A stretch of 64,000 nt of DNA, taken from assembly GCA_964562375.1 (NCBI GenBank), contig CAZLSW010000001.1:32871-96870 (forward strand), written 5' to 3'. Both the position numbers and the translations under genes were made by a program. Position 1 is the first letter of the stretch. Each line of letters opens with the position of its first letter. The notes under the pieces are model-generated. The model did not search any database. It was not told the origin of the DNA and worked only from the letters and a program-made list of their open reading frames with translations. Origin of the DNA: an uncultured Muribaculaceae bacterium. GTDB lineage: Bacteria > Bacteroidota > Bacteroidia > Bacteroidales > Muribaculaceae. Below, piece after piece: positions 6,591 to 62,324 of the stretch.

Positions 6591-6601
6591 TTTCAACCCG
6601 A

Positions 6602-16081: not shown

Positions 16082-16089
16082 TAACTTTG
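16082..16089 (+). promoter_or_regulatory. Bacteroidetes-type -7 promoter box TAACTTTG
   Basis: Exact match to TAnnTTTG 14 nt upstream of the ATG at 16103. No clear -33 TTTG at standard spacing. Confidence 0.4.
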
Positions 16090-16102
16090 CGGAAAAAACT
16101 TT

Positions 16103-16648
16103 ATGGTAATCTCAATTTCACAATCTGAAATGCTGGTTCTGTGGCGCCAACTGCGCTATAATGAGCCTATTAGAAACGACGCCGCGGTAACCCGTGTGGA
16201 TGGTGTCGACCGCGACCGTCTCCACCAAGTGGAAATGCGCAACTGGTACCTCAATCTCCTGGCTACTGGTCATTTACGCTACCTGAAAATTAGCGATATC
16301 GCCACCCAGGTCGCCGTAACCGACATGGGCGACGGCACGGGTAGAGTGCTGTTGCCTGAGAAGTGTGTACGTCCACTGTGTGTTACCTTGGACGGCTGGG
16401 ATCGCTGCGCTCGGGTGGTGGAGCCCGATTCCCTAGAGGCTGAGATGCAGCTCAATGAATTCAGCCGGGGTAGAACGGTTGAGCCGGTGGCCGTGCATTA
16501 TCCGGGTCAACTGAGGCTATACTCCCTGGTCGATGGAGTAACGCCCAAGATCACATCCCTGCGCTGCGTCATGGAGCCCTCCGACGGCGTCTACGAGCTC
16601 GACGACAGCGCCCTATTAACCATTAACCCTTTAACCATTAACCATTAA
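16103..16648 (+). CDS. Hypothetical protein, first gene of the portal-like cluster
   Basis: 181-aa ORF ending 5 nt before the portal-like gene. The last codons are encoded by a (TTAACCA)n repeat. No family recognised. Confidence 0.5.
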   Translation: MVISISQSEMLVLWRQLRYNEPIRNDAAVTRVDGVDRDRLHQVEMRNWYLNLLATGHLRYLKISDIATQVAVTDMGDGTGRVLLPEKCVRPLCVTLDGWDRCARVVEPDSLEAEMQLNEFSRGRTVEPVAVHYPGQLRLYSLVDGVTPKITSLRCVMEPSDGVYELDDSALLTINPLTINH

Positions 16649-16652
16649 ACAA

Positions 16653-18032
16653 ATGGAAACCACTGAAAAAATTATCTCCCTTGAGGTCCTCGCCGCCTCC
16701 CGACGTGCCTGGAACCGCATGGCCAACATCCGCCAAAACCGCTCCCGTTTCAAGGATTTCACCTACGGCAAACAATGGGGCGACAAAGAGAAAACACCTG
16801 AGGGTATCACCCTCACCGAAGAGCAACTCACTATCAATCAAGGTGCTCGTCCCCAAACCAACAACCTCATCCGTCAGATGGTGAAGACCATCATTGGTCG
16901 ATATCGCCAGCAACAGGCCGAGCGACAAATCCAGCACGGCCTCAAGGGCCTTTATCGCCGAAATATGCTCCCCGAACTCGATTCCCGGCTCCTCGAGGAA
17001 TTCCTAATCTCGGGTTGCGCTATCCAACGTATAAGCACCGAAACCACCATGAAAGGCCGCGGCCCATGGGTGGAGAACGTAAATCCCAACACATTCTTTG
17101 TCAACGACTTCCGCGATCCTCGCGGCTGGGACGTGGAGCTTCTTGGCATGGTGCATGATTGGAGCCTACGTGAGGTGATCATGCGCTTCGGCCACGGCGA
17201 CCCCGACCGTATAGAGCGCCTTCGCGAGGTATACAGCATTGTCCGAGGAGAGTCGTTCCTCAATGGCGATTTTCTTGGCGGTCCTACCGACCGCTGCCGG
17301 GTAATCGAGGCTTGGACCCTTGAGAGTCATGGACTTATCGAAGTCCACGACCCCGTGAGAGGCGTCTATGAGGTGTTGGACGCCGCCTGCATCGATGATG
17401 TCAACGCTCAAAACGGCCAGCGACGCCGTAAAGGTATCCCCGAGCGTCGCGTGCGCCAGTGCATATCCACATTCTGGCGTTGCCGTTACATGTCGCCCAC
17501 AGGCGAGTTATTGCACAGTTATATCGCTGAGCAGCACCCATTTGTATTCAAGTTTTACCCCCTCACCGACGGCGAGGTACATTCCTTTGTCGAGGATATT
17601 ATCCATCAGCAAAAGCACGTCAACCGCATCATCACAATGGTCGATCAAGTGATGCGCACTTCAGCCAAGGGCGCTCTCCTTTATCCCGTGCAGTGCCTCA
17701 CAAAGGGTACCTCAATCAAGGACATTTCTAAGGTGTGGAGCGCACCCGACGCCGTCATTCCCTACAACGCTTCCAGCCTCGGCGAACCCCACCAGATCAC
17801 GACCTCCTCCGGCGACATTGGAGCCTACAACCTTTTGAATCTCGAGCTCCAACTCTTGCAGGATGTCTCTGGCGTTGGCGACGCCCTGTTGGGCAAAAAT
17901 ATCTCGGCCGCCAAGGGCGAAGGGGTATACGAGGCTCAGGTGAGAAACGCCACAATCGCCATCTCCGACCTTCTCGAAACATTCCAATCTCTCGTTGAAC
18001 AACGTGATCAAAAGTTGTTAAAATTGCAATAA
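16653..18032 (+). CDS. Phage portal-like protein
   Basis: The N-terminal RQNRSRFKDFTYGKQWGD...TEEQL...QGARPQTNNLI resembles the Y-x-G-x-QW opening of portal proteins. The C-terminal LELQLLQDVSGVGDALLGKN...AQVRNATIA resembles the portal stem and helix region. Recognition is by eye only. Confidence 0.5.
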   Translation: METTEKIISLEVLAASRRAWNRMANIRQNRSRFKDFTYGKQWGDKEKTPEGITLTEEQLTINQGARPQTNNLIRQMVKTIIGRYRQQQAERQIQHGLKGLYRRNMLPELDSRLLEEFLISGCAIQRISTETTMKGRGPWVENVNPNTFFVNDFRDPRGWDVELLGMVHDWSLREVIMRFGHGDPDRIERLREVYSIVRGESFLNGDFLGGPTDRCRVIEAWTLESHGLIEVHDPVRGVYEVLDAACIDDVNAQNGQRRRKGIPERRVRQCISTFWRCRYMSPTGELLHSYIAEQHPFVFKFYPLTDGEVHSFVEDIIHQQKHVNRIITMVDQVMRTSAKGALLYPVQCLTKGTSIKDISKVWSAPDAVIPYNASSLGEPHQITTSSGDIGAYNLLNLELQLLQDVSGVGDALLGKNISAAKGEGVYEAQVRNATIAISDLLETFQSLVEQRDQKLLKLQ

Positions 18033-18081
18033 TAGCAAAAATAATTGTAAGCTGTGCAATGAAATTGCCCATGCCGACTTG

Positions 18082-18089
18082 TAAATTTG
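18082..18089 (+). promoter_or_regulatory. Bacteroidetes-type -7 promoter box TAAATTTG
   Basis: Exact TAnnTTTG 31 nt upstream of the ATG at 18120. It overlaps the TTG that opens the ORF-track ORF at 18087, arguing for the later start. Confidence 0.45.
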
Positions 18090-18119
18090 TCAAAAATTCT
18101 AAGATATACATCTAAAACT

Positions 18120-18566
18120 ATGACAACTCGAAACACACAATCAATCTTGCGTCAGCGACGCGATCGCCACTTGGTTTTGGCGATCCGTCGCGTGATTCAG
18201 GAGGCTCACCACCGCGGCGAAATGCCCCTGATGAGCGAGGTCGCCGCAAGGGCCGTTAAGCAAGCCGCCCCCGGCTATTACGTGGAATATTCCACAGCTC
18301 AGCAGATGATGTACCGCAGCGTCGACCACTCACGGCTGTCGCCCCTCCATCAGGTAATGTGGCAAGAGATACGGCAAAAAGCCCAAGGGCGTATCGACAA
18401 TGGTCAAGCACCATCCATGGCTCGCGCCGTCGAAGAGGTCCTGCTTTTGGAGCCTGCCTCCCGTTACTTCATTACCCCCCAGCACGCCCAGCGCATCTAC
18501 CAGCGCCACCGCCACCGCAGGAAGGAAGGCGGTTCGACCTCCTCCCTCCAATATTCCTCTCGTTAG
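18120..18566 (+). CDS. Hypothetical basic protein in the portal-like cluster
   Basis: 148 aa from the ATG at 18120, Arg/His-rich, with its own -7 box. No family recognised. Confidence 0.45.
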   Translation: MTTRNTQSILRQRRDRHLVLAIRRVIQEAHHRGEMPLMSEVAARAVKQAAPGYYVEYSTAQQMMYRSVDHSRLSPLHQVMWQEIRQKAQGRIDNGQAPSMARAVEEVLLLEPASRYFITPQHAQRIYQRHRHRRKEGGSTSSLQYSSR

Positions 18567-18715
18567 TTCAACTTTCTCAAGTGTTGAAACCACGAATTAA
18601 CACTAATGAACACCAACAAATTAACAGGGTTTCTAATAAATTTTAGAGAGCTAACGCTCTTTAATTAACACTAATGCAGATAGCGTTGCGTTATGGAAAT
18701 TCGTGTTGATACTTC
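18560..18715 (+). repeat. AT-rich 3'-flank repeat element, copy B
   Basis: Shares TAGTTCAA.TTT..CAAGT...GAAACCAC.AATTAACACTAAT with copy A in direct orientation. The sub-block CACTAATG..GATAGCGTT.C.TTATGGAAATTCGTGTT is inverted relative to copy A. Confidence 0.7.
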
Positions 18716-18762
18716 TCCCAGCCCGGTCACGTCCCCTCCTTAATCCTTAATCCTTTATTTAT

Positions 18763-19164
18763 ATGACAGTTATCTCTTTATCCACTGTGGAAAAAACCAT
18801 CTACGCCCTGGCTGCATTGCGCAGCCACTACTCCCGCCGTCGTTCCGAGACGGTGCCCCTGTTGACCCGCGACCACGGGCCGGCCCTCCGACTGCTGGCC
18901 GTCGACGCTGTGGCCGACATCGCCCAGCGCATCGGCATCGAAGCCACCTACGACGGCGACGACCAGGTGACACTCCAGCTCGACTCTGACGACCTCACCG
19001 TTGTCCGGCTTATCCACCATGCCGCGGCTATGCTCACCCTCTCCACGGCCAATGTGGGCTACGACCCGGAGGCCGTCGACGACTACGCCGACAAGGCTGA
19101 GGGACTCATCGCCCAGCTTCCCCAGCCTAGCCTCACCATAGAGCGCAAGCTCCCCTACATGTAA
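18763..19164 (+). CDS. Hypothetical small helical protein (size and position compatible with a head-tail connector or adaptor)
   Basis: 133-aa ORF with an ATG start, followed by a perfect 18-bp hairpin. The functional guess rests only on context and size. Confidence 0.4.
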   Translation: MTVISLSTVEKTIYALAALRSHYSRRRSETVPLLTRDHGPALRLLAVDAVADIAQRIGIEATYDGDDQVTLQLDSDDLTVVRLIHHAAAMLTLSTANVGYDPEAVDDYADKAEGLIAQLPQPSLTIERKLPYM

Positions 19165-19166
19165 GA

Positions 19167-19208
19167 AAATCGTAATAACGTTATCACTCAATAACGTTAT
19201 TACGATTT
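19167..19208 (+). terminator. Perfect 18-bp stem-loop closing the portal-like cluster
   Basis: AAATCGTAATAACGTTAT / ATAACGTTATTACGATTT with a 6-nt loop, starting 3 nt after the stop at 19164. Confidence 0.6.
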
Positions 19209-19465
19209 CGTAATCAAATGATTACAATGGTTATTCACAAGGCGAGGGCAGTTATTATGCCAGCCAGAAGCGCCAGGCGCGCCAAGCGGGATATCCACCG
19301 AATGTGGCGGTCGCGGCGAGCGAAGCTGTCTTTGATATCGGTTACAATCGGTAGCATAGTTGTGTAAGCAAAGAAAGGGTTAATAAACTAAGTGAACATC
19401 ATTTTCCTTTATAACAATCAACTATGCCTTTTTGGCTCGCCAAAACCGCAAAAAAAGCGTTAAAG

Positions 19466-19566
19466 CAGGAGGTCCCGCCGTGTCGGCGGGACAGTTAGAC
19501 AAGAAGTCCCGCCGTGTCGGTGGGACAATAATTCTCTCGGGCCGACACGGCCCGACATCCTACTTG
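19466..19566. repeat. REP-like palindrome cluster (3 copies) downstream of asnS
   Basis: GTCCCGCCGTGTCGGCGGGAC, GTCCCGCCGTGTCGGTGGGAC and the inverted GGGCCGACACGGCCCGAC, with AGGA(A/G)GT / ACAG flanks. Confidence 0.9.
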
Positions 19567-19568
19567 CT

Positions 19569-20957
19569 TTAGAATTCGGCGTTCTTCGGCGTACGCGGGA
19601 ATGGGATCACGTCGCGGATATTGGTCATGCCCGTCACGAAAAGCACCAGACGCTCGAAACCAAGACCGAAACCGGCGTGAGGCACCGTGCCGAAACGGCG
19701 AGTATCGAGATACCACCACATGTCCTTCATCGGGATGTTCAGCTCCTCGATGCGGGCCATGAGCTTGTCGTAATTCTCCTCGCGTTCCGAGCCACCGATG
19801 ATCTCCCCGATGTTGGGGAACAGCACGTCCATGGCGCGCACGGTCTTGCCGTCCTCGTTCTGCTTCATGTAGAAAGCCTTGATCTCCTTGGGATAATCGG
19901 TGAGGATCACCGGGGTCTTGAAATGCTCCTCCACCAGGTAGCGCTCGTGCTCGCTCTGCAGGTCGGCGCCCCAGTAGACGGGGAACTCAAATTTCTTTCC
20001 CGATTTCTCCAAGATTTCCACGCCCTCGGTGTAGGTAAGGCGCTTGAATGGCTTGGCCAGTACCCCCTCCAAGCGCGCGATCAGCTCGGGGTCGTACATT
20101 TTCTGCAGGAACTCGATGTCGTCGCGGCAGTTGTCAAGGGCGTAACGGATGCAGTATTTCACGAACTCCTCGGCCAGGTCCATGTTGTCGGTGATGTCGT
20201 AGAAGGCCATCTCAGGCTCAATCATCCAGAACTCGGCCAAGTGGCGCGGGGTATTGGAATTCTCGGCGCGGAAGGTGGGGCCGAAGGTGTAAATCTCGCC
20301 GATCGCGGTGGCTCCAAGCTCGCCCTCCAGTTGGCCCGACACGGTCAATGCCGTGGGCTTGCCGAAGAAGTCCTGCGAGTAATCCACGGCACCCTCCTCG
20401 GTTTTGGGCAACTCATTAAGGGGTAAGGTGGTAACCTGGAACATCGCGCCGGCGCCCTCGCAGTCGCTTGCCGTGATCAACGGCGTGTTGAGGTAGTAGA
20501 AACCTTTATCCTGGAAGAACTTGTGGATGGCGTAGGCCAAAGCCGAGCGCACGCGCAGGACGGCCCCGAACGTGTTGGTGCGGGGACGCAAGTGGGCAAT
20601 CTCGCGCAGGAACTCCAGGGAGTGTCCTTTCTTCTGCAGCGGATAAGCCTCGGGATCGGCTGTGCCGTACACCTCAAGCTCGGTAGCTTGGATCTCGGTG
20701 GCCTGGCCCTTGCCCATCGATTCCACGAGGTCGCCCACGACGTGGATCGAGGCCCCGGTGGTGATAGGCTTAAGCTGCTCCTCGGTGAAGCGGTCGAGGG
20801 GGAACACGATCTGGATATTGTTGATCGTGGAGCCGTCGTTCAGTGCCACAAACTGCACGTTTTTGTTGCCGCGGCGGGTGCGCACCCACCCTTTGACGCT
20901 CACTTTCTCGCCCACTTTATCCTTGGTGAGAATATCCTTGATTTTGCTTCTTTTCAT
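19569..20957 (-). CDS. asnS: Asparagine--tRNA ligase
   Basis: Class II motifs [21 protein letters not shown] and GFGLGFERL. Start at [10 protein letters not shown] (ATG 20957). Confidence 0.95.
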
Positions 20958-20974
20958 TGTGATTGATTTATTAA

Positions 20975-21062
20975 TGCACTCGTGCACTCATGCATTCGTT
21001 TACTCGTTTACTCGAAAGCTCGAAGGCTCGAATGCACGAATGAACGAATACACGAATGCACG
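20975..21062. repeat. Array of eleven 8-nt units (TGCACTCG / TTTACTCG / AATGCACG types) in the asnS leader
   Basis: Strict 8-nt periodicity. The left and right halves contain mutually complementary words (TGCATTCG vs CGAATGCA), giving an imperfect long palindrome. Confidence 0.85.
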
Positions 21063-21088
21063 AGGGATCGAAATTACGATTTTTGAGA

Positions 21089-22627
21089 TTATTCGAAGGA
21101 GCCCATTTTGAGGAAGTTAACCTCTTCCTGGGTGAGGTAACGCCAGCGGCCGCGGGGGAGGTTTTTCTTGGTCAGGCCCGCGAAGTACACGCGGTCGAGC
21201 TTGGTCACGTGGTAACCCAGCGACTCGAAGATACGGCGAACGACGCGATTGCGGCCCGAGTGGATCTCGATGCCCGCCTGGTTGCGGTCGGTCTCGGTGG
21301 CGTAGGAGATGGCGTCGGCGTGGATGGGGCCGTCGTCAAGCTCGATGCCGTCGGCGATACGCTGCATATCCTCCTCGGCGATGTCCTTGTCACACCATAC
21401 GTGGTAGATTTTCTTCTTCACGTATTTGGGGTGGGTGAGCTTGGAGGCCAGGTCACCGTCGTTGGTCAACAGCAGCACGCCGGTGGTGTTGCGGTCCAAG
21501 CGACCCACGGGGTAGATACGCTCGTTGCATGCGCCCTTCACCAGGTCCATAACCGTGGTGCGGCCGTTGGGGTCGTCGCTCGTGGTGACGCAATCCTTCG
21601 GTTTGTTAAGCAGGATGTAGCATTTGCTCTCCAGAGCCACCACCTTCTCATCGTATTCAACGACATCCGAGTGGGAGATCTTGGTACCCAGCTCGGTAAC
21701 AACGTTGCCGTTGACCTTCACCAAGCCCTGCTGGATGAACTCGTCGGCCTCGCGGCGCGAGCAGATACCGGCGTTGGCCATGAACTTGTTCAGACGAATC
21801 TGCTCATTGGGATCGGGTATCGGCATTTCGTACTCGATACGCTTGGGGCGCGGAGTGAAGCTCTTGCCGCGTGAGGGCATGAACCCTTGCTGACCCTGCT
21901 GGCGACGGTTGTTGTACCCGCCTTGCTGACGGTTGTTGTAGCCGCCCTGGCGGTTATTGTAACCACCCTGGCGGTTGTTGTTGTAGCCACCCTGACGGTT
22001 GTTGTTGTAGCCACCCTGGCGGTTGTTGTTGTAGCCGCCCTGACGGTTGTATCCGCCCTGTTGGCGATTCTGGCCTTGGTGACCGGGGTTGTTGTAACCG
22101 CCTTGGCGATTGTTGTATCCGCCCTGGCGATTGTTGTTGTAACCGCCTTGGCGGTTGTTATTGTATCCACCCTGCTGGCGAGGCTGGTAGCCGCCGGCGT
22201 TGGGACGCGGCTGGTAGCCTGTGTTGGGGCGGGGCTGGTAGCCTTGGGTTGGGGTAGCGCCGGCTGCGCCCTCGGCGGTCTCGCCTTCCTTGGCCTCGCC
22301 CTGGGGGGCGGCGGAGGGGGTACCGTAGGTGTTGGGACGCGGCTGATAGCCACCACCTTGGTAGTTATTGTTATAGCGATTGTAGCCCCCCTGCTGGCGA
22401 TTTTGGTAGCCTCCAGCGTTGTTGTAGCGGTTTTGGTAACCACCCTGTTGGCGTGGCTGATAGGGGCGCGGCTGGTAGGGGCGGTCGCCCGTGGGGGCGG
22501 CGTCGCTGTTGTGATCGTTCATTGAGCTGTAGCTCGACTTTTCATAGCGTGAGCCTTCGTGATCGTCGGCCACCGCACGGCTCTCGCCGATTCTGGGTCG
22601 TTTCCCTTTTTTGTCGTTACTTTCCAT
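21089..22627 (-). CDS. Pseudouridine synthase (RluB/RsuA family) with a roughly 250-aa N-terminal Gly/Tyr/Asn/Gln/Arg repeat region
   Basis: C-terminal half has an S4 domain (IRLNKFMANAGICSRREADEFI) and the catalytic VGRLDRNTTGVLLLTNDG. The N-terminal half is NRQGGYNN-type repeats. Confidence 0.88.
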   Translation of the reverse strand: MESNDKKGKRPRIGESRAVADDHEGSRYEKSSYSSMNDHNSDAAPTGDRPYQPRPYQPRQQGGYQNRYNNAGGYQNRQQGGYNRYNNNYQGGGYQPRPNTYGTPSAAPQGEAKEGETAEGAAGATPTQGYQPRPNTGYQPRPNAGGYQPRQQGGYNNNRQGGYNNNRQGGYNNRQGGYNNPGHQGQNRQQGGYNRQGGYNNNRQGGYNNNRQGGYNNNRQGGYNNRQGGYNNRQQGGYNNRRQQGQQGFMPSRGKSFTPRPKRIEYEMPIPDPNEQIRLNKFMANAGICSRREADEFIQQGLVKVNGNVVTELGTKISHSDVVEYDEKVVALESKCYILLNKPKDCVTTSDDPNGRTTVMDLVKGACNERIYPVGRLDRNTTGVLLLTNDGDLASKLTHPKYVKKKIYHVWCDKDIAEEDMQRIADGIELDDGPIHADAISYATETDRNQAGIEIHSGRNRVVRRIFESLGYHVTKLDRVYFAGLTKKNLPRGRWRYLTQEEVNFLKMGSFE

Positions 22628-25391: not shown

Positions 25392-25504
25392 CTTCTTCAC
25401 TTAATCCTTTACTCCTTTCCTCCTTTAAAGATTTAACGCCTTAAAGATTTAAAACTAGAAACTAGAAACTAGAAACTAGAAACTAGAAACTAGAAACTAG
25501 AAAC
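25392..25504. repeat. CCTTT-word block followed by (AACTAGA)x7
   Basis: TAATCCTTTACTCCTTTCCTCCTTTAAAG, then AACTAGA x7 (25453-25504), ending 2 nt before the stop of the ABC ATPase gene. Confidence 0.9.
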
Positions 25505-25506
25505 TC

Positions 25507-26787: not shown

Positions 26788-26925
26788 TAGTTTTTAGTTT
26801 TTAGTTTTTAGTTTTTAGTTTCTAGTTTCTAGTTTTAAAGCATTAAAGCATTAAAGCTTTAAAGGAGTAAAGGAGGAAAGGATCCATTTATAAGCCCCCG
26901 CTTCGGGGGTTTGGGGGCCGCTTTA
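26788..26925. repeat. Composite repeat: (TAGTTTT)x4-(TAGTTTC)x2, (AAAGCATT)x2, (AAAGGAGN)x3, then GC hairpin AAGCCCCCG-CTTC-GGGGG
   Basis: Read directly from the sequence. The AAAGGAGG...GGAT...TTATAAGCCCCCG.TTCGGGGG..TGGGGGCCG part recurs at 55030-55105. Confidence 0.9.
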
Positions 26926-33706: not shown

Positions 33707-33827
33707 CGTTTACTCGTTCATTCGTTTACTCGTTCATTCGTTAATTCGTATACTCGTGTACTCGTGTACTCGTTCACTCGAAAACCAAAAACCAAAAACC
33801 AAAAACTAGAAACTAGAAACTAGAAAC
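33707..33827 (+). repeat. Modular leader array upstream of apt: nine 8-mers (CGTTTACT/CGTTCATT/CGTGTACT), (AAAACCA)x3, (AACTAGA)x3
   Basis: Read directly. Same 8-mer-then-7-mer order as upstream of leuS and the acyl-CoA synthetase gene. Ends 16 nt before the apt ATG. Confidence 0.9.
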
Positions 33828-33842
33828 TTTAAAACTAAAATA

Positions 33843-36396: not shown

Positions 36397-36412
36397 CACT
36401 GCTTCATTTAAG

Positions 36413-36488
36413 TCGGGGTGACTAGATTCGAACTAGCGACCACACGCCCCCCAGACGCGTACTCTAAACCTGGCTGAGCTACACCCCG
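36413..36488 (-). tRNA. tRNA-Pro (anticodon GGG)
   Basis: Hand-folded cloverleaf of 76 nt: acceptor CGGGGTG/CACCCCG, D-arm GCTC..GAGT, anticodon stem CGCGT/GCGTG with loop CTGGGGG, T-arm GCTAG-TTCGAAT-CTAGT. No encoded CCA. Confidence 0.85.
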
Positions 36489-40452: not shown

Positions 40453-40640
40453 TAAGTAGGACGTCAAGTAGGAAGTCGGGCCGTGTCGGCCCGACAGATC
40501 AGAAAGGAAGTCGGGCCGTGCCGCCCCGACAGATTAGAAAGGAAGTCGGGCCGTGTCGGCCCGACAAATTAGAAAGGAGGTCGGGCCGACACGGCCCGAC
40601 AACCAATTCCGTCCCGCCGACACGGCGGGACATCCTATTT
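40453..40640. repeat. REP-like palindrome cluster (5 copies, about 35-nt period)
   Basis: Three forward copies of AGGAAGTCGGGCCGTG(T/C)CGGCCCGACA spaced by ATCAGAA/ATTAGAA, then two inverted copies (…GCCGACACGGC…). Confidence 0.95.
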
Positions 40641-42247: not shown

Positions 42248-43330
42248 TTAACAACTCTTTGGCTCACCCCTATACTGGTAGTGGTTGCGTAGTGATTCGA
42301 AGGCTTGCGGCCGGGCTTTTAGCTCGGCCGTATCCTTTCGGGGGTCGTAGCTGGCCAAAAGCGCCTCCACGCTCACAGTATCGGCCACAGGTGGTAGTTT
42401 AGGCAGGAAGTCGGGCCGTGTCGGCCCGACAGAAAGAAAGTCCCGCCGTGTCGGCCCGACAGAAAGGAAGTCCCGCCGTGTCGGCCCGACAGAAAGGAAG
42501 TGCTCCCTCACGGCGGCGACGGCTATCAGGGTAGCCCGTTGCTTGCCTTCCAGGGAGTAACCGGCTATATGCGGCGTGGCGATCTCGGCAAGCGACAATA
42601 ACCCGGGACTGATGTTAGGCTCTCCCTCCCAGCAGTCAATCGCGGCGCCAGTAATTTGGCCGCTCCGCAACGCCTCAACCAGTGCAGGCGTATCGACCAC
42701 TGGGCCGCGAGCCGCATTGAAAATCAGCGGTTTTTGCTCGCACTTGCCGAAGAAATCGGCATCGGCCATATGGAATGTTCGATCCTCGCCTTCGCGGGTG
42801 AGAGGCGTGTGGAAAGTTATCACGTTGGCTTCGCGAGCGATCTCGTCGAGCGTCACGAAACCCTCAGCGCCCTCCTCGCGAGCTCTTGGCGGGTCGCAGA
42901 GTAGCACCTTGATTCCCAATCCCTTGGCCCATCTTTGGACAATCTTGCCCACATGGCCCACGCCAACTATTCCCAAAACTGTGCCCTCGAGTGGGCGCAT
43001 GGCCATCAGCGACGTGAGCACCCACTGGGCCACGCCCGGAGCGTTGCAGCCAGGGGCGTTCCTCACCTCAATTCCACGCGACGCGCAATAGGGGAGGTCG
43101 ATATGGTCGGTGCCGATAGTCGCGGTCGCAATCATCTGGCAACGAGAGTGTTCCAGCAAGTTGGCGTTGCATTTCGTGCGTGTGCGGGTAACCAGCGCAT
43201 CGACGTCGCGCATCGCCTCCGGCGTGATTTCCTCGGCGGGGAGATACCTCACCTGGCCAAGGTCCTCAAGCATTCCTTGGATGAACGGGATGTTGGCCTC
43301 GACCACGATGTTTAAGCCGTGAGATTCCAT
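42248..43330 (-). CDS. pdxB: D-isomer-specific 2-hydroxyacid dehydrogenase, erythronate-4-phosphate dehydrogenase (PdxB)-like, carrying three in-frame repeat insertions
   Basis: GIVGVGHVGK NAD fold and ATPHIAGYS. Start at MESHGLNIVV (ATG 43330). FLSVGPTRRD x3 is encoded by REP-like copies. Confidence 0.75.
   Translation of the reverse strand: MESHGLNIVVEANIPFIQGMLEDLGQVRYLPAEEITPEAMRDVDALVTRTRTKCNANLLEHSRCQMIATATIGTDHIDLPYCASRGIEVRNAPGCNAPGVAQWVLTSLMAMRPLEGTVLGIVGVGHVGKIVQRWAKGLGIKVLLCDPPRAREEGAEGFVTLDEIAREANVITFHTPLTREGEDRTFHMADADFFGKCEQKPLIFNAARGPVVDTPALVEALRSGQITGAAIDCWEGEPNISPGLLSLAEIATPHIAGYSLEGKQRATLIAVAAVREHFLSVGPTRRDFLSVGPTRRDFLSVGPTRPDFLPKLPPVADTVSVEALLASYDPRKDTAELKARPQAFESLRNHYQYRGEPKSC
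42401..42500. repeat. Three tandem REP-like copies (30-nt period) inside the pdxB-like CDS
   Basis: Cores at 42410-42430, 42440-42460 and 42470-42490. The 30-nt period equals 10 codons and reads through as (F)LSVGPTR(R/P)D. Confidence 0.95.
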
Positions 43331-46240: not shown

Positions 46241-46405
46241 CAAGTAGGAAGTCGGGCCGTGCCGGCCCGACAGATAGAAAGGACGTCGGGCCGTGTCGGC
46301 CCGACAGATCAGAAAGGAAGTCGGGCCGTGCCGGCCCGACAGAAAACGTGTCCCGCCGGCACGGCGGGACATCCTACTTATAAAAGGGGACATCCTACTT
46401 ATAAA
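46241..46405. repeat. REP-like palindrome cluster (4 copies) plus a duplicated flank (GGACATCCTACTTATAAAAG x2)
   Basis: Three forward GTCGGGCCGTG(C/T)CGGCCCGAC copies and one GTCCCGCCGGCACGGCGGGAC. Confidence 0.95.
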
Positions 46406-52450: not shown

Positions 52451-52562
52451 CTAAGTAAGTAGGAAGTCCCGCCGTGCCGGCGGGACAGCTCAAGTAGGAA
52501 GTCCCGCCGTGCCGGCGGGACAGTTTTCTCTGGCGGGCCGTGCCGGCCCGCCTTCCTTTCTA
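52451..52562. repeat. REP-like palindrome cluster (3 copies) upstream of the transporter
   Basis: Two AAGTAGGAAGTCCCGCCGTGCCGGCGGGACAG copies and one GGCGGGCCGTGCCGGCCCGCC variant. Confidence 0.92.
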
Positions 52563-52796: not shown

Positions 52797-53300
52797 ATGG
52801 GCTCCTCTAAATTCCAATCCAATCTCATGAAGCTGCAAAGCAATATGCTCAACTTCGCTTATATGCTTACCGCCAACCGCGACGACGCTTACGACCTCCT
52901 CCAGGACACCACCCTCAAAGCTCTCGACAACGAAGAGAAGTACATCGACAACACCAACTTCAAAGGCTGGGTGTTCACCATCATGCGCAACATCTTCATC
53001 AACAATTACCGCCGCGTGGCCCGCGCAGCCACTGTTGTCGACTCCACCGAAAACCTCTACCACCTGAATCTCTCCCAGGATTCAGGCTTGGAAACTCCCG
53101 AAGGCGCCTTTGGCGCCAAGGAGATCACTCAATACCTGAGCGAGTTTCCCGACGAATATCGCGTTCCTTTCTCGATGCACGTCGCCGGCTACAAGTACAA
53201 CGAGATCGCCGAGAAGATGAACCTCCCCCTTGGCACCGTCAAGAGCCGCATCTTCTTCGCCCGCCAGCGCCTCCAGAAGCGTTTCGCCGATTACCGCTAA
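52797..53300 (+). CDS. RNA polymerase sigma-70 factor, ECF subfamily
   Basis: Region 2 (DLLQDTTLKAL...GWVFTIMRNIFINNYRR) and region 4 (YNEIAEKMNLPLGTVKSRIFFARQRL). No adjacent anti-sigma gene. Confidence 0.9.
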   Translation: MGSSKFQSNLMKLQSNMLNFAYMLTANRDDAYDLLQDTTLKALDNEEKYIDNTNFKGWVFTIMRNIFINNYRRVARAATVVDSTENLYHLNLSQDSGLETPEGAFGAKEITQYLSEFPDEYRVPFSMHVAGYKYNEIAEKMNLPLGTVKSRIFFARQRLQKRFADYR

Positions 53301-53445
53301 GTAGGAGGTCCCGCCGTGCCGGCGCCCCAGCTTAAGTAGGAAGTCCCGCCGTGCCGGCGCCCCAGCTTAAGTAGGAAGCTGGGCCGTGTCGGCCCAGCAG
53401 TATCAACAAGCCACTGTGCCCCGCGGTTTGCCGCGGTGGTCTCCT
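53298..53445. repeat. REP-like cluster (3 copies) plus a CCGCGG-type element, starting on the sigma-factor stop codon
   Basis: TAAGTAGGAGGTCCCGCCGTGCCGGCGCCCCAGC x2, then AGGAAGCTGGGCCGTGTCGGCCCAGCAG and CAAGCCACTGTGCCCCGCGGTTTGCCGCGGTGGTC. Confidence 0.92.
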
Positions 53446-53553: not shown

Positions 53554-54975
53554 CTACTGCTCTTCCTCGGCGGCTGCCAGGGCTGCTTCCTCTTCCTTGG
53601 TGAGCCACTTCACGCGCACGTGGGTCTCAGGGTAGCGGAGAACCATGCAAGAGGCCTCGGTGATGACGATCGCGTCGGTGTTGCGCTGGCCCGAGGTGCG
53701 CAGGTCCAGTTTCTCCGTCTGGAAGGGAATGTGGCAGTACTTGGTCACATACTCAGGGTCGAGAATCAATCCGTCGCGCTCGTGGCCGCACTGGTCGAAC
53801 GTCTCGCAAGGCAACACGTAGAGGGAGCCGAATTTGCTCACGATCTCGTTGAAGTCGATGCCCCACTTGGTCACGCGTTCCTGGGAATTCACCAGGCGAT
53901 TGAACGTTAGGCAGTTGATCTCCTCCACAAGTTTCGACCCCGCAATCAAGATCTTGCGCGTCGATCCGTTGTTCTTGGTGAACGCCTTGTAGCACAGCGC
54001 CACCAGGTCCTTCTCTTTGAAGGTCGACGGCATATTGTGGTCGCGGCCGGCCTGGTTCCAGATTCCGCCGGTGAGGTAAATCTCCCCCTTGGTGGGGTCG
54101 TTGACCTTGGCCTTGGTGCCGAACAGGAAGTTCTTCTCCATGCCCAGGCGCATGTCGTAGATGGCTACCTCCTCCTGGTCGCTGAGGGTCCAGCCTACCT
54201 CTTTGTTGGCCAGTTTCATAAGCGTCGACTGCTCGATCTGGGCCTTGAAGATTTGGCAGTAGTTGTCGGCCTTGGTGGGTACCGCCTCGAAGGAGGTCGT
54301 CTGCACGTCAAGCTCGCCGGCAGCGCGGCCCATGCGGATGAGTTTGGTCCCCTTGTCCATTGCGGGAACCACGGCCACGCCTGAGGTGTCGAAGTTGTTT
54401 ACCGAGATCACGTTGACCGTCTTGGTTTGAGTGCGCGAAACCACATAGAGCACGAGGGGCTGTTGGCTCGAGGCCGTAATGGAGGGCACGAGAATCGTCT
54501 CCGAGGCCTCAAACATGTTCTCCTTGGCTACCGTCAGGGTGAGAGGAGAGTTGGTCGAGCTCCCTTCGGTGGACTTCGCTAGCTCGGTTTCAGTCTCCTT
54601 GGTGTCCACCGAGTAGTACTGCACAGTCATTGAGTCGGCGGCGCGGCTGCCGGTGCAGCGAGTAATCTGGTCAACCGGGGTGGCCATGGGACGGATCTTG
54701 GTGATGCGGTTGTCGATCTCGCTACGCAAGAGGCCCGGGGCTACCTCCTCGGTGACCGAGGTGGTGAGGGGGCCGTCGGTGACGTGGGTCCCTCCCGCGG
54801 TACCCGCTACAACAGCCGCCGAAGCGTAGATCATGTCTCCGTCGCCGCCCAAGGCGAGCCAAAGGGCCACTGTGGCAATCGCCACGAGAAGGGTTACTAC
54901 GCCGTTGTCGCTTTTCACCCACTGGATCATCTGGTCAATCATGCCAGAAAGATTCTTCACATTGAAATTTTTCAT
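53554..54975 (-). CDS. HK97-fold major-capsid-like protein (SU10/DUF5309-type resemblance)
   Basis: 473 aa. ...EIDNRITKIRPMATPVDQI... resembles the N-terminal isP.dTPf signature. Also LSDQEEVAIYDMRLGMEKNFLFG and a C-terminal NTDAIVITEASCMVLRYPE. Recognition is by eye only. Confidence 0.55.
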   Translation of the reverse strand: MKNFNVKNLSGMIDQMIQWVKSDNGVVTLLVAIATVALWLALGGDGDMIYASAAVVAGTAGGTHVTDGPLTTSVTEEVAPGLLRSEIDNRITKIRPMATPVDQITRCTGSRAADSMTVQYYSVDTKETETELAKSTEGSSTNSPLTLTVAKENMFEASETILVPSITASSQQPLVLYVVSRTQTKTVNVISVNNFDTSGVAVVPAMDKGTKLIRMGRAAGELDVQTTSFEAVPTKADNYCQIFKAQIEQSTLMKLANKEVGWTLSDQEEVAIYDMRLGMEKNFLFGTKAKVNDPTKGEIYLTGGIWNQAGRDHNMPSTFKEKDLVALCYKAFTKNNGSTRKILIAGSKLVEEINCLTFNRLVNSQERVTKWGIDFNEIVSKFGSLYVLPCETFDQCGHERDGLILDPEYVTKYCHIPFQTEKLDLRTSGQRNTDAIVITEASCMVLRYPETHVRVKWLTKEEEAALAAAEEEQ

Positions 54976-55112
54976 AAAAGTTGAATGTTGAAAGTTGAAT
55001 GTTGAAAGGTTTCTAGTTCCTAGTTTTTAGTTAATGGGGTAATTTTAAAGGAGGAAAGGATAAAAGGGGCTATTATAAGCCCCCGTTTCGGGGGGGTGGG
55101 GGCCGATTCGGC

Positions 55113-55442
55113 TTAGTCCCAGATGGAGCGTCGGATGTGATTGAGGATCAGGGCCTTGGCCGACTGCGTGGGAGCTTCCAGCTCGCGAGGCCGCGACATC
55201 AGCTCCTCAATGCGTTCATTACGGCCCTTAAGATAACCGCGGCGCTCAGCCGCAGCAAGAACCTCTTCAAGATCCACTCGAGTGACCTCCGGCCTGGGCC
55301 CTTGCGACGCCACTGGCTCGGCTGAGGTGGCACCCTCTTCATTGTGCCCCGTGCACTCTTCACTGAGCCCTGTGCGCTCTTCGTTGTGCCCTGTGCACTC
55401 TTCATTGTGCACTTCCTGGTTGATGGTTTCATTTTCTTCCAT
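55113..55442 (-). CDS. Small acidic/helical protein upstream of the capsid-like gene (scaffold-like position)
   Basis: 109 aa. N-terminus built from 4 x 21-nt repeats (HNEECTG/HNEERTG/LSEECTG/HNEEGAT) and a helical charged C-half (LEEVLAAAERRGYLKGRNERIEELM). Confidence 0.45.
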   Translation of the reverse strand: MEENETINQEVHNEECTGHNEERTGLSEECTGHNEEGATSAEPVASQGPRPEVTRVDLEEVLAAAERRGYLKGRNERIEELMSRPRELEAPTQSAKALILNHIRRSIWD

Positions 55443-55653
55443 AGCATTATTGGTTTTTGGTGGTTAAGAATTACGGTACAAAATTACCCCCGGCTATGGG
55501 CCGAGGGTATGTCATTTTCACCAAAAGCATATTTTTTTTCATGTTATCGACAATTTTGGGCAGTTATCAACACGGGAGGCGGTTTTTGCTTTTTAGTTTT
55601 TGGTATTTGACGGAAATGATGTTACTTTGCATTGTGCAAAATTATAATTGCTT

Positions 55654-56427
55654 ATGGGTAAAATAATTGCAATAGCCAATCAGAAAGGCGGAGTAGGAAA
55701 AACCACCACCACCATCAACTTGGGAGCCTCCCTCGCGGCCGCCGGCCAAAAAGTGCTTATTATCGACGCCGACCCCCAGGCCAACGCCACATCGGGATAC
55801 GGTATCGACCCAAAATCGATGACCTCATCCATTTACGAGTGCCTGGTGGACAACTACCCCCTGCAAGGCTCCCAAGTGAAGACGTGTGTCGAGGGCCTCG
55901 ACCTTATCGGCTCCCGTATCGACCTCGCTGGCGCCGAGCTTGAACTGATCAACAAATCCGACCGCGAGCGCGTGCTTCAACACCTACTGGAGCCTATCGC
56001 TCCACAATACGACTATATCCTCATCGACTGCTCCCCGTCGCTGGGCTTGATAACTGTGAACGCGTTGACAGCCGCGCAGTCGGTAATAATCCCGGTCCAG
56101 GCCGAGTATTTCGCCCTCGAGGGAATCTCCAAGTTGTTGAACACTATACGCATCATCAAGTCGCGACTCAACCCCCATCTCGAGATTGAGGGATTCCTCT
56201 TGACAATGTACGACGCGCGCCTGCGCTTGGCCAACCAGATTTACGAGGAGCTGAAGGGACATTTCGGGCAGATGGTGTTTGACACCGTCATCCCGCGCAA
56301 CATCCGCCTAAGCGAGGCCCCGAGCCACGGCCTGCCGGCGCTCCTCTACGACCCCGAGAGCCGCGGAGCCACATCCCACGTGATGCTCGCCAAAGAAATC
56401 ATCTCCAAGAACTCCAAGAATAAATAA
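55654..56427 (+). CDS. parA: Chromosome partitioning ATPase ParA (Soj)
   Basis: Deviant Walker [15 protein letters not shown] at 55654; the ORF-track start at 55648 is a TTG. Confidence 0.95.
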
Positions 56428-56428
56428 T

Positions 56429-57307
56429 ATGGCATTGAAACGCAACGCATTAGGGCGAGGCCTTGACTCGCTAATACCAATGGACGACGTGCCCGCCGCC
56501 GGCACGACGGCTATAAACACCGTGCCACTAAGCCAAATCTCGCCCAATCCCGATCAACCTCGCCAGACATTCGCCCAGGATGCTCTGGACGACTTGACGC
56601 GCTCGATCACAACGTATGGCGTGCTTCAGCCCATTTCCCTGAGGCAAGTTGGCCCCTCAAGCTACCAGATAATCGCTGGTGAGCGTCGCTATCGTGCCGC
56701 TTTGGCCGCAGGTCTGCGCGAGATCCCCGCATATATACGCGACGCCAACGAGCAAGAGCTCACCGAGATGGCTCTAATCGAGAACATCCAGCGCGAGGAT
56801 CTCAACCCCATCGAAATCGCCCTTACCTACAACAAGCTCATCGACCAATATCACCTCACCCAGGAGCAGCTTTCGGAACGCATCGGCAAAAGTCGAGCTG
56901 TGATCGCCAACGCGTTGCGCATGCTTCGCCTGCACGCTGATGTGCAATTGGCCCTGAGCGAGAGGCGATTGACCGAGGGACATGCCCGCGCTATTCTAAG
57001 GTTGGACGACCACCAGATGCAGAATAAACTGTTCCATCGTATCCTGGCCGAGGACCTGAGCGTGCGCCGCGCCGAAGAGCTTGCCAAAGAGATGCTCGAG
57101 GGGGTGGAAATAACCCCCAAGAAACCCACGCTAAAACGCGAAAAAAACCGCCTTTTCGACGAATTGAAGCAAAACCTCTCCGCCCGCTTTTCCGCTCCCG
57201 TCCAGCTCCATTGCGACGCCAACGGAAAAGGCCGCATTACCTTCTCCTTCCGCGACCAAGAGCAGCTCACCCGCCTGATCGCCCTCTTCGACCAAATCCA
57301 AGGCTAA
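56429..57307 (+). CDS. parB: Chromosome partitioning protein ParB (Spo0J)
   Basis: GERRYRAA box and an HTH region; 292 aa. Starts 2 nt after parA. Confidence 0.95.
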   Translation: MALKRNALGRGLDSLIPMDDVPAAGTTAINTVPLSQISPNPDQPRQTFAQDALDDLTRSITTYGVLQPISLRQVGPSSYQIIAGERRYRAALAAGLREIPAYIRDANEQELTEMALIENIQREDLNPIEIALTYNKLIDQYHLTQEQLSERIGKSRAVIANALRMLRLHADVQLALSERRLTEGHARAILRLDDHQMQNKLFHRILAEDLSVRRAEELAKEMLEGVEITPKKPTLKREKNRLFDELKQNLSARFSAPVQLHCDANGKGRITFSFRDQEQLTRLIALFDQIQG

Positions 57308-57358
57308 GTAGGAAGTCCCGCCGTTAAGTAGGAAGTCCCGCCGTGCCGGCGGGACAGC
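57305..57358. repeat. REP-like copies (one truncated, one full) starting on the parB stop codon
   Basis: TAAGTAGGAAGTCCCGCCGT | TAAGTAGGAAGTCCCGCCGTGCCGGCGGGACAG. Confidence 0.92.
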
Positions 57359-57511: not shown

Positions 57512-58900
57512 CTATTCATAGGCCCCTATCGCCCCGGCGCGTGCCGTCCCGTAGCGGTCGTAGGCCGCCGCCGGTAGCGTCAACGACGCGTCGGCCGCTC
57601 CCCGCGCCGGTGAATCCTCCTTCAACCGATAGTCGAAGTAATAATCCTCCCGCACGGTATAGTACAGCGGGTCGGTGTCCCACAGGCAGTTGATGAAATT
57701 ATCGTCATCCGCCCCGGCTGATTTCAGCACGCAGCGCCGCATCAACACCGTCGAGCCCTCCAGGTCGCCGTGCGACAGGTCCGTCCCGTTGCCGTAAACG
57801 ATGGTGTTGTCGATGTTGGCCTTCAGGTAGGGGAGTCCCGAGGAGTCGTCATCCTCGCTCGTCACGTGGGCAAGCTGTAACGAAGGCCCCCCAAGTGCGG
57901 TGAACAGGTAGTAATTGGCTATGGTACAATGATTTAATGTCAACTCGCCGCCACGTACATACATTACGCCCAGCGAAGCGTCCGAGAACTCGCACCCGAT
58001 TGCGGTGACACCCGTGTGGGCCGCTTGAAACACATAGCTCCCCGAGTTGTGAAGCTGGCAATTGAGCATATACAGCTCAGGGGCGTTCATCGAGCCCCCC
58101 AGCGAGTCGGCCACCACGCCGTAGCTTGTGTTGCGTATCGACGTGTGGCTCAGCTTGTTCCCTTTCGACGAAGGAGTGAAGAACAATCCCTCCCACTGCG
58201 ACGCCAACAACTCAAACGGTATCGTCGTCACAACGTTCCCCAAGCGGTCGCCCACCATCTCCACCGGCTGCTCGGCCGTGCCGTTCACCTCCAGGGTGCC
58301 GCGCACGATAAATTCAGCCTTGTCGTGGAAATACAGCGTGACGCCGGGATCGACGATCAATTTCGCGCCCTCCTCTACCACGATCGAGTCCCACACCTGG
58401 TAGGGGTACTCGGCCGTCATTCGGGAGTCTTGGGTGATCACCAGCGAGCGTATCGGCTCCACGTCAAAGCCATCGGCGTGCAACACCACCGACCGTGTCA
58501 CTCCCAGGGTAGTGAAATCCAAATGGTCCTCGACGGCGAGGAGCCCCGGCTTGCCGTTCACCGGCGCCGTGGCCTCCACAAACACGTAGATTGAGTCGTT
58601 GGGGCGTATCTCCACGTTGGAGAACGTGCGTCCCGACTGACCGTCCACGTTCAGACGAAACACTCCCGAGGCGTCGTTCCTCAGGGATATCGTATTGATA
58701 TTAATGATTTTGTCGTGACGGTTGTACACCACGAAACGGTGAGTGGGGGTGCCTTGGCCAGTGAAGACGTTACCGAGCTTGAGCGTATCGACCGAGAATG
58801 TCGGCTGGTCGCTCGATGAGGTCGACACGCCGTCCTCGATGCACGAGACAACGCAGATGGGCAGCAGGGCGAGTATAATGATTCTTATAAAATTCTTCAT
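57512..58900 (-). CDS. Lipoprotein with right-handed parallel beta-helix repeats
   Basis: Lipobox LLPICVVSC. The central region has repetitive G/N/S-rich beta-helix-like turns. Start at MKNFIRI (ATG 58900, alternative 58909); the ORF-track start at 58918 is a TTG. Confidence 0.6.
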   Translation of the reverse strand: MKNFIRIIILALLPICVVSCIEDGVSTSSSDQPTFSVDTLKLGNVFTGQGTPTHRFVVYNRHDKIININTISLRNDASGVFRLNVDGQSGRTFSNVEIRPNDSIYVFVEATAPVNGKPGLLAVEDHLDFTTLGVTRSVVLHADGFDVEPIRSLVITQDSRMTAEYPYQVWDSIVVEEGAKLIVDPGVTLYFHDKAEFIVRGTLEVNGTAEQPVEMVGDRLGNVVTTIPFELLASQWEGLFFTPSSKGNKLSHTSIRNTSYGVVADSLGGSMNAPELYMLNCQLHNSGSYVFQAAHTGVTAIGCEFSDASLGVMYVRGGELTLNHCTIANYYLFTALGGPSLQLAHVTSEDDDSSGLPYLKANIDNTIVYGNGTDLSHGDLEGSTVLMRRCVLKSAGADDDNFINCLWDTDPLYYTVREDYYFDYRLKEDSPARGAADASLTLPAAAYDRYGTARAGAIGAYE

Positions 58901-59052
58901 AACAATCATATAACGCAATCCCCCGCCGTTTATTGCCTCCTCATTTGTCTTGAATGGTCAATGCAATCTGGCCAAGAATCGGCCCATATTTTGCTCGGGA
59001 AATAAGGTGGGCATACATGGCGTCCTCCCCTTCTCCTACGATGATGCGTTGG

Positions 59053-61453: not shown

Positions 61454-61495
61454 GCTAAACGCTAAACGCTAAATGCTAAATGCTAAACGCTAAAC
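61454..61495. repeat. Heptanucleotide tandem repeat (GCTAAAY)x6
   Basis: Six consecutive units ending 6 nt before the stop of the ferritin-like gene. Confidence 0.92.
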
Positions 61496-61500
61496 GCTTC

Positions 61501-62069: not shown

Positions 62070-62196
62070 AAGTTTATAGTTTCTTGTTTATAGTTTCTAG
62101 TTTCTAGTTTCTAGTTTCGCTAAATTGAATATTCACCGCTTTTCACCCCTTGAGCTATTAACTAGAAACTAGAAACTAGAAACTAGAAACTATAAA
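62070..62196. repeat. Inverted heptamer arrays (TAGTTTC)n ... (AACTAGA)n in a divergent promoter region
   Basis: The left array 62091-62118 (TAGTTTC x4) is the reverse complement of the right array 62160-62190. A 41-nt spacer separates them. Confidence 0.9.
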
Positions 62197-62324
62197 CCCC
62201 AAAACTTGGCCGCATCGCGAAAAACGCGTATCTTTGGGCCGTGAAAGGGCTAAGGCCGCATGATTGTGTTGAATATAACTCAATTCTACCCTTAAATATA
62301 CCAACATTAAACACGATAACCCGC

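Follow-up and report, generated by a model that had tools for sequence, protein, structure and literature searches.

Capsid-forming phage-inducible chromosomal islands (cf-PICIs) are contiguous mobile islands that carry an integrase, regulators, and a replication module. Among gene transfer agents (GTAs), the genes of RcGTA are spread over several loci (bioRxiv 10.64898/2026.07.08.737213), and the podovirus-like FpGTA candidate of Faecalibacterium consists of a short operon encoding the small and large terminase subunits (TerS and TerL), portal, scaffold, and major capsid protein (MCP) (PMC12946183). Here we analyzed a stretch of 64,000 nucleotides (the window) from an uncultured Muribaculaceae bacterium (GenBank assembly GCA_964562375.1, contig CAZLSW010000001.1, positions 32,871 to 96,870), which carries an MCP gene and a scaffold-like gene, orf109, at one locus and further phage-type head genes at another. 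In our view the best explanation of these genes is a domesticated, GTA-like head-and-packaging system distributed over several loci, of which the MCP and orf109 form the capsid half; we give this explanation a probability of about 0.5. No description of such a system was found in the literature on DUF5309, on GTAs in Bacteroidales or Muribaculaceae, or on domesticated capsid genes. The six module genes of the window are listed below by position and strand.

53554-54975, minus strand: MCP, 473 residues (PF17236, phrog_26635, AlphaFold2 model searched with Foldseek)
55113-55442, minus strand: orf109, scaffold-like protein of 109 residues, upstream partner of the MCP (aligns with the C-terminal region of gp57 of phage BF1-TP2)
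16103-16648, plus strand: homolog of a head-to-tail adaptor, 181 residues (family profile, AlphaFold2 model)
16653-18032, plus strand: short P22-type portal protein, 459 residues (PF16510, E = 1.6e-15; phrog_156, E = 2.1e-30)
18087-18566, plus strand: s159, small basic protein of 159 residues (family hidden Markov model (HMM); phrog_27246, E = 1.8e-5)
18763-19164, plus strand: s133, small helical protein of 133 residues, the sixth conserved module gene (HMM and alignment)

By its profile matches and predicted structure, the 473-residue product is an SU10/DUF5309-type, HK97-fold major capsid family protein, and the resemblance is far beyond chance. It passed the family threshold of Pfam PF17236 (SU10_MCP) with 174.5 bits for a cut-off of 24.1 (E = 4.6e-51), the match spanning residues 85-457 of the protein and positions 12-290 of the 292 in the profile. 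PHROG returned phrog_26635 (E = 3.5e-80) and phrog_1328, annotated "major head protein" (E = 7.4e-14), while NCBIfam gave no match. An AlphaFold2 model was built from 42 homologs (predicted local distance difference test, pLDDT, 65.6; predicted template modeling score, pTM, 0.60) and searched with Foldseek; the 50 best matches in the PDB were all HK97-fold capsids, encapsulins, or encapsulin-derived engineered cages, each with probability 1.0, with phage VP1 as the best (E = 2.5e-15) and phicrAss001, P1, and SU10 also matched. The template modeling (TM) scores were low (0.24-0.33) because arms and loops are poorly placed in the model. The preliminary description of this locus, made from the letters alone, had proposed exactly this family for the longer of two open reading frames (ORFs), with another fold as the finding that would speak against it. 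Both ORFs lie where it had placed them, all four peptide blocks that it quoted occur in the 473-residue translation, and the Pfam, PHROG, and model matches agree with its proposal. Among the phages of INPHARED, three matched the MCP at 37-39% identity, the temperate Bacteroides podophages BF1-TP2 (PQ571263), BS-TP4 (PQ571277), and BKO1-TP3 (PQ571269).

The MCP begins with an extension that contains a hydrophobic helix (residues ~26-44). In 37 of the 42 homologs, the position and hydrophobicity of this segment are kept, though its sequence is not, and four lineages lack the whole extension. The segment had been noted earlier as unusual for a capsid subunit; its presence was borne out, but the MCP of BF1-TP2, a real phage, also starts with a hydrophobic segment, which is therefore a trait of the capsid family and no mark of domestication. 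It could act as a membrane anchor for assembly or as a removable assembly domain; no protease gene was found among the module genes.

A homolog of orf109 always lies directly upstream of the MCP gene, in at least 20 other loci. Members of this family share a variable acidic N-terminal part, a conserved core (AEERGYLRGRNE..I..M), and the ending ..R.S(I/V)WD, which reads ...SIWD in orf109. The core and the C-terminal motif align with the C-terminal part of gp57, the product of the 283-residue gene that precedes the MCP in BF1-TP2, and searches of Pfam, PHROG, and NCBIfam with orf109 returned no family match. The acidic ORF that the preliminary description had put in the place of a scaffolding gene is hence a conserved upstream partner of the MCP, and its position and the gp57 alignment are evidence for a shortened scaffolding protein, so that a scaffolding function can be putatively assigned to it.

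A 21-nt tandem repeat (55335-55410, 3.6 copies) underlies the N-terminal part of orf109, in which the heptapeptide HNEE(C/R)TG is reiterated. The version in a close relative (comparison locus L212) is longer, at 121 residues, indicating that the repeat number differs between strains. The spacer between orf109 and the MCP gene holds a terminator-like hairpin, GGGGGCTTATAATAGCCCCT, followed by a T-run (55065-55084), the hairpin count being not above chance, and a 14-nt tandem repeat, AAAGTTGAATGTTG on the plus strand (2.3 copies, 54977-55008), stands immediately before the MCP start codon. Hairpin and repeat may tune the ratio of scaffold to capsid expression.

The capsid gene and its partner had been reported as a two-gene unit, and this picture was incomplete. 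Searching the window with module partners from other genomes, followed by confirmation with HMMs, located the adaptor, the portal, and two more module genes ~36 kb away, at 16103-19164 on the plus strand (16.1-19.2 kb), between dapB/signal peptidase and an aminoacyl-tRNA synthetase gene; in relatives, a TerL belongs to the set as well.

Used alone, the 181-residue adaptor sequence retrieved three close relatives only, and the family alignment reached further: its profile retrieves phage proteins of 210-225 residues, some of which exceed the cut-off of PF24175 (SU10_adaptor). The nine best PDB matches of the adaptor model (pLDDT 84, pTM 0.76) were podophage neck or tail assemblies, among them the tail barrel of phicrAss001, the SU10 tail (7z47), and the Carin-1 connector, with modest scores (E = 1e-3 to 1e-1, TM 0.33-0.46; phicrAss001 7qoj_D at E = 1.3e-3). 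Matches in BFVD include "Head to tail adaptor" and "Tail tubular protein A", and PDB sequence searches with the adaptor alone, the adaptor profile, and the s159 profile yielded nothing significant. The C-terminal helix of ~25-30 residues found in the phage versions is missing. The portal protein, which matches solved structures weakly at the sequence level (E = 0.019), aligns to residues 6-502 of the 622-residue BF1-TP2 portal, so that ~120 C-terminal residues are absent.

The two remaining genes of this locus are small. The real start of s159 is probably at 18120, which would give 148 residues; the protein contains an internal duplication and ends in a basic tail. Its HMM matches BF1-TP2 gp58 and, in 74 phage-type viral contigs, the gene in the gp58 position of a gp58-gp59-TerL-portal operon. 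By this homology, s159 would correspond to the gene that opens the phage packaging operon, where a small terminase is usually encoded, and a TerS function is suggested by that position only. The s133 product aligns with those of 157-177-residue genes that follow the s159 homolog in contiguous islands, and its HMM found matches in 16 genome loci and in loci containing TerL. A PADLOC scan of all module proteins gave no match.

MCP homologs are abundant in Bacteroidales and Muribaculaceae assemblies, with 2795 matches among 8000 candidates scored, and those that carry a name are called "DUF5309". For the comparison loci (numbered with an L), gene calls were based on ORFs and tblastn. Elsewhere the genes recur as a compact cluster of a small acidic ORF, the MCP, an ORF of ~180 residues, a P22-type portal of ~450 residues, and two small ORFs, embedded in housekeeping genes such as those for ribosomal protein S20, phosphoenolpyruvate carboxykinase, and riboflavin kinase. 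The split layout of the window is also found in close relatives (L046; L212-L214), and in many genomes the module is divided into two or three loci.

At three loci (L047-L049), the gene immediately upstream of the scaffold-like one encodes a TerL of 642 residues, with 35-42% identity to its BF1-TP2 counterpart and a match to phrog_2, "terminase large subunit" (E = 4e-17). At L017, the two are 4 kb apart, with four polysaccharide-synthesis genes between them. A metagenome scan with the island TerL yielded 80 loci, the longest contigs reaching 1.9 Mb. Three of the loci (L132, L134, and L138) are fully contiguous, in the order X, TerL, scaffold-like gene, MCP, adaptor, portal, and small ORFs, where X is an ORF of ~800-830 residues that usually precedes TerL and abuts or overlaps its start (48 HMM matches in TerL loci). 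The module is rearranged in L137, L198, and L211, the two small ORFs follow TerL in L157, and in most TerL loci with full 10-kb flanks neither MCP nor portal is nearby. Across 76 island-type sequences, the catalytic residues of TerL do not vary: the Walker A-like motif K.RQ.G.ST, the catalytic Glu, and the Asp residues of the nuclease. X has homologs of ~870-980 residues in real phages, annotated as "hypothetical" only, and is therefore taken to be phage-derived; the island version of X found no match in annotated phages.

Some further features were seen at individual copies. In a prevalent Muribaculaceae lineage, many short-read contigs stop at the same point, the end of the adaptor gene (L129-L131), and insertions of ~200-300 bp distinguish the MCP-adaptor or adaptor-portal spacers of L014 and L016 and of L031 and L035. 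The shared contig ends and the spacer insertions suggest a repeat or a variable or invertible segment within the module. About 7 kb downstream of the contiguous module of L042, an HRDC protein and a reverse transcriptase (RVT_1) are encoded (20514-21407), and in L127 an RHS/YD-repeat toxin of ~1900 residues with small downstream ORFs adjoins the portal gene (15496-21210). These accessory elements are probably unrelated neighbors.

In the window, both parts of the module have housekeeping surroundings (dapB, signal peptidase, an aminoacyl-tRNA synthetase, parAB, and proB, by Pfam). No integrase or replication gene was found in the Pfam-annotated flanks of the two window loci (~4-6 kb per side) or within 10 kb on either side at related loci, and no homolog of the tail, fiber, lysis, or replication genes of the related phage was found in the window or within 10 kb on either side of the chromosomal copies examined. 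Nor were att sites or a tRNA target seen beside the copies, the sole tRNA gene of the window (36412-36488) lying far from both loci. All six window genes are intact. In comparisons with close relatives, the ratio of nonsynonymous to synonymous substitution rates (ω) was 0.084-0.087 for the MCP, 0.083 for the adaptor, 0.069 for the portal, 0.23 for s159, and 0.25 for s133, and that of orf109 was 0.51 (against L212). Synonymous divergence (dS) of the module, 0.50-0.83, falls within the range of the flanking housekeeping genes (0.38-0.85).

Neighborhoods and phylogeny point the same way. One MCP variant occurs on more than 100 contigs with always the same neighbors, and its left neighbor, a DUF1573 gene, is common to a different lineage; between these two lineages, MCP, portal, and adaptor are 71%, 62%, and 51% identical and the flanking host gene 53%. 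The island-type MCPs form one clade, apart from phage MCPs on contigs with portals of 627-758 residues, and share an architecture of short portal, short adaptor, short scaffold, and adjacent adaptor and portal genes. Since the window MCP is nested inside the clade of contiguous islands, the split state is derived. A second subclade of lone MCPs (L018-L027) lies among ordinary metabolic genes. These data are those of a module that is vertically inherited under purifying selection, apparently domesticated and neither mobile nor decaying. An intact or remnant prophage was considered and rejected, as integration, lysis, and tail modules are not adjacent and the six window genes are intact and under selection.

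In IMG/VR, MCPs with 49-58% identity to that of the window stand in island-type order on short contigs, those of full-length phage contigs have 36-41%, and an intermediate, phage-like group has 46-49%. This last group (L028, L029, L033, and L051-L056) has a scaffold-position gene of ~250 residues and an adaptor with the C-terminal helix. L054-L056 look phage-like, with TerL divergent upstream, and L028, L029, and L033 have host-like genes after the adaptor and no portal within 9 kb. The group may represent a second independent domestication or a transitional state.

Both halves of the window module are preceded by the same promoter arrangement.

55479-55525, minus strand: promoter region of the capsid half, with the 18-mer TTTGGTGAAAATGACATA at 55508-55525, a 21-nt spacer, and the -7-type box TAATTTTG at 55479-55486
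16043-16089, plus strand: promoter region of the portal half, with the 18-mer TTTGGTGAAAATGACATA at 16043-16060, a 21-nt spacer, and the -7-type box TAACTTTG at 16082-16089

The 18-mer has exactly these two sites in the 64 kb, even when three mismatches are allowed, for an expectation of 0.03. It is kept at the capsid half of L212 while the adjacent upstream sequence diverged, and at the portal half of L046, where the spacer diverged; none of the other 213 loci has it. Upstream of every scaffold-like gene examined stands a -7 box of the Bacteroidetes housekeeping type (TAnnTTTG, mostly TAACTTTG). The 18-mer, confined to close relatives, is hence a lineage-specific motif, and other lineages share the generic -7 box only. 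A scan for sigma-70-type promoters and terminators gave a site count not above that of shuffled sequence. We infer that splitting of the operon went along with duplication or retention of its promoter region and that the 18-mer is a putative binding site that would keep the halves co-regulated; with a host-type promoter at both halves, one host factor could co-activate the scattered genes.

Another candidate for such control lies beside the capsid half, in the flanking genes.

52797-53300, plus strand: extracytoplasmic function (ECF)-type sigma factor (Pfam)
55648-56427, plus strand: parA (Pfam)
56429-57307, plus strand: parB (Pfam)

The preliminary description had correctly set the capsid gene between these flanks and had pointed to the sigma factor as its possible regulator. 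This link found no support: the sigma gene and parAB adjoin the MCP only in the closest relatives and are absent near the other copies examined, both promoters carry housekeeping-type boxes, and the 18-mer is absent upstream of the sigma gene. In a distant relative (L021), a sigma orthologue of 84% identity lies 3.4 kb from the module, which looks like residual synteny and leaves a small possibility of a functional connection between sigma factor and module.

Taken together, the genes can be read as a set derived from a podophage lineage related to the BF1-TP2-type Bacteroides phages and passed on like other chromosomal genes in Muribaculaceae and the gut Bacteroidales related to them. The full set would comprise X (~810 residues), TerL, the scaffold-like protein, the MCP, the adaptor, the short portal, the homolog in the small-terminase position, and one more small protein. 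In the source genome it appears to be broken up into the parts at 53.5-55.4 kb and 16.1-19.2 kb, and X and TerL, if present, would lie outside the window. Judging from the homologs, the MCP and the scaffold-like protein would assemble around the portal, TerL, with its intact catalytic motifs, would fill the head with DNA together with the gp58-like protein, and the adaptor would then bind and close or extend the portal vertex. What results would be a particle of the GTA kind, controlled by the host and loaded with cellular DNA. Virus-like particle (VLP) fractions of the mouse gut contain abundant Muribaculaceae DNA, notably of Duncaniella, with uniform coverage and no assigned mechanism (bioRxiv 10.64898/2026.07.08.737213). 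That observation is compatible with a GTA-like particle, though it is circumstantial and no evidence for one. A more specific proposal is that this is the first GTA-like system of Bacteroidota, a minimal particle related to a podophage head, made from about eight domesticated genes at two or three loci that are co-activated via a shared upstream motif, widespread in Muribaculaceae and related gut Bacteroidales, and the source of the unexplained Muribaculaceae DNA in VLPs; we put it forward tentatively and consider it doubtful as a whole.

Several points weigh against a GTA-like system. What the data show is which genes these are, that they are conserved, under selection, and fixed in the chromosome, and that they share cis-motifs. 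Genes for a tail, receptor binding, or lysis were not identified, which leaves the delivery step of a GTA unaccounted for, and neither TerL nor X was found in the 64-kb window. X matched nothing in Pfam, PHROG, or the PDB, and its position in phages is inconsistent (after the adaptor in L068 and at the end of the early operon in BF1-TP2). Adaptor and portal are truncated in comparison with those of phages and could have changed in function. The MCP model is of moderate confidence, the MCP tree is a midpoint-rooted neighbor-joining approximation, the operator role of the 18-mer is a putative one, and nearly all comparison sequences are metagenome-assembled genomes (MAGs) or metagenome contigs.

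Other explanations account for part of these data. With a helper-dependent, capsid-forming, satellite-like system, the cell would build small heads of its own and package DNA, and a BF1-TP2-like phage, either infecting or resident, would supply the tails for completion and delivery, as it does for capsid-forming PICIs in general terms. Such an element would suit a gene content of head, neck, and packaging functions with no tail fibers, the retention of the adaptor as the tail-docking part, and the existence of related podophages that infect Bacteroides. We nevertheless think it unlikely, because a set split over loci at least 36 kb apart, here and in many genomes, cannot move as a unit, and the split, fixed, integrase-free layout argues against it: chromosomal position is fixed, dS matches that of the neighbors, no integrase, att site, tRNA target, or replication gene stands beside any copy, and the adaptor is without the C-terminal helix seen in phages. 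A contiguous mobile island of the cf-PICI kind was rejected for the lack of an integrase, att sites, and a replication module near all copies and for the 36-kb split in the window. Somewhat less credible still is anti-phage interference, in which chromosomal copies of capsid, portal, adaptor, and terminase would co-assemble with the parts of BF1-TP2-like phages, or titrate them, and so poison assembly. Homology to phages of the same host order (MCP 36-41%) and truncated adaptor, portal, and scaffold-like proteins that could be dominant-negative would fit, and purifying selection with host promoters is what one expects of a defense gene. However, the module keeps more than interference would need, namely a complete, catalytically intact TerL and a full, coherent set of head genes; PADLOC returned no match, and the location is stable and not in variable defense islands.

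The two remaining explanations fare worse. Decaying prophage remnants with no present function might recur because related phages integrate often, and the phage origin of the genes, the incomplete sets, their scattering and rearrangement among genomes, and the listing of some copies as viral contigs in IMG/VR are all as expected of decay. This is very improbable in light of the selection on the genes: the six window genes are intact, with ω of 0.07-0.25 for five of them and 0.51 for orf109 at dS of 0.5-0.8, the TerL motifs are invariant in 76 copies, the island-type MCPs are a single clade with a derived architecture of its own, and host-gene synteny and promoter motifs are conserved. We regard as the least probable of all an encapsulin-like nanocompartment, or a membrane-associated shell, without DNA. 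The HK97 fold, the encapsulins among the structural matches, the conserved N-terminal hydrophobic helix, and the isolation of the orf109-MCP pair at its window locus would agree with it, but the partners of the MCP, a portal, an adaptor, and terminase genes, argue against it, and the hydrophobic N-terminus is also that of a real phage MCP. An encapsulin system was accordingly rejected: the conserved partners are the scaffold-like protein, adaptor, portal, TerS-position protein, and TerL, and no cargo-type gene is conserved next to the MCP.

The rest of the window was also inspected. A PorZ-type component of type IX secretion at 10033-12513 (PF21544, E = 1.2e-32) confirms a Bacteroidota host. 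Beside parB, a lipoprotein-like ORF of 468 residues (57512-58918) gave no Pfam or PADLOC match and is 96% identical in L212. Tandem, hairpin-forming intergenic units of ~30-35 nt with the core ...GGAAGTCCCGCCGTGCCGGCGGGAC... occur at 40470-40601, 42405-42501, 46246-46343, 52457-52523, 53298-53393, and 57305-57344, thus also directly downstream of the MCP/ECF pair and after parB, and look like repetitive extragenic palindromic (REP)-type elements or terminators. Many public contigs with a window-type MCP break within ~2 kb of it, possibly due to repeats of this type, and such repeats could have brought about the rearrangement by which the module was split. A 24-nt tandem array (~11 copies, 21906-22254) in the 5' part of a pseudouridine synthase-like gene (21089-22627, minus strand) encodes a repetitive, low-complexity N-terminal extension of the protein. 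Perfect or near-perfect tandem heptamers (AAACTAG, CAACTAA, TAGTTTT, and similar), in 4-9 copies, occupy the following intergenic positions.

6566-6591: tandem heptamers
13123-13183: tandem heptamers
25452-25505: tandem heptamers
26788-26836: tandem heptamers
33781-33840: tandem heptamers
61454-61498: tandem heptamers
62071-62197: tandem heptamers

This A-rich class is unusual and recurrent, and its members may be leaders or regions of translation initiation.

Among gut bacteria, Muribaculaceae and their relatives in the Bacteroidales are dominant, and their horizontal gene transfer is intense, with conjugative elements and phages as the known routes. As a conserved, host-controlled system for capsids and packaging, the module would add a candidate route by which DNA is exchanged in Bacteroidota, or else a domesticated viral machine of a new kind, and it would supply defined genes for testing against the unexplained bacterial DNA of gut VLP preparations. 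It also offers a clear case of an operon split with the promoter motif kept at both halves, useful for studying host takeover of viral gene regulation. Module loci, some of which are in IMG/VR, are likely to be mistaken for prophages or viral contigs or to remain labeled "DUF5309", and their recognition would improve the annotation of viromes and MAGs.

Finally, we compared the module with the systems that it resembles. BF1-TP2-type phages, its nearest relatives among real phages, have homologs of the module genes in their MCP, scaffold-position gene, adaptor-type gp54, portal, TerL, gp58, and X-like gp33. In contrast to the module, they are 64-68 kb long with replication, lysis, and tail modules, their portal has 622 residues (~450 in the module), their adaptor ~222 with the C-terminal helix, and their scaffold-position gene 283, and the gene order differs, TerL and portal being divergent from the scaffold-MCP operon. 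SU10 shares with the module an MCP of PF17236 and an adaptor that is linked to PF24175 via the family profile and matches the SU10 tail structure (PDB 7z45-7z4b), but identity in the structural alignment is 13-14% and SU10 is a complete lytic phage of E. coli. Like the MCP, the shell protein of encapsulins has the HK97 fold and is the product of a chromosomal gene of the cell; encapsulins lack a portal, an adaptor, and a terminase and come with cargo enzymes, whereas the MCP is paired with packaging machinery. The cf-PICIs come closer in gene content, with an HK97-fold capsid, portal, adaptor or connector, and packaging proteins of their own and no tail. Unlike theirs, the genes of the module are dispersed and positionally fixed, with no integrase, regulator, or replication module nearby. 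GTAs differ from the module in that no tail, fiber, or lysis genes were identified in the latter, in the phylum (Bacteroidota), in the ancestry of the genes (an SU10/DUF5309-type MCP and a P22-type portal), and in the splitting of the module head genes between loci. Nevertheless, the module, known here through its genes, has in common with RcGTA of Rhodobacter capsulatus and its relatives chromosomal, phage-derived structural and packaging genes that come without integration or replication genes, are inherited vertically under purifying selection, and are placed under host-type control.

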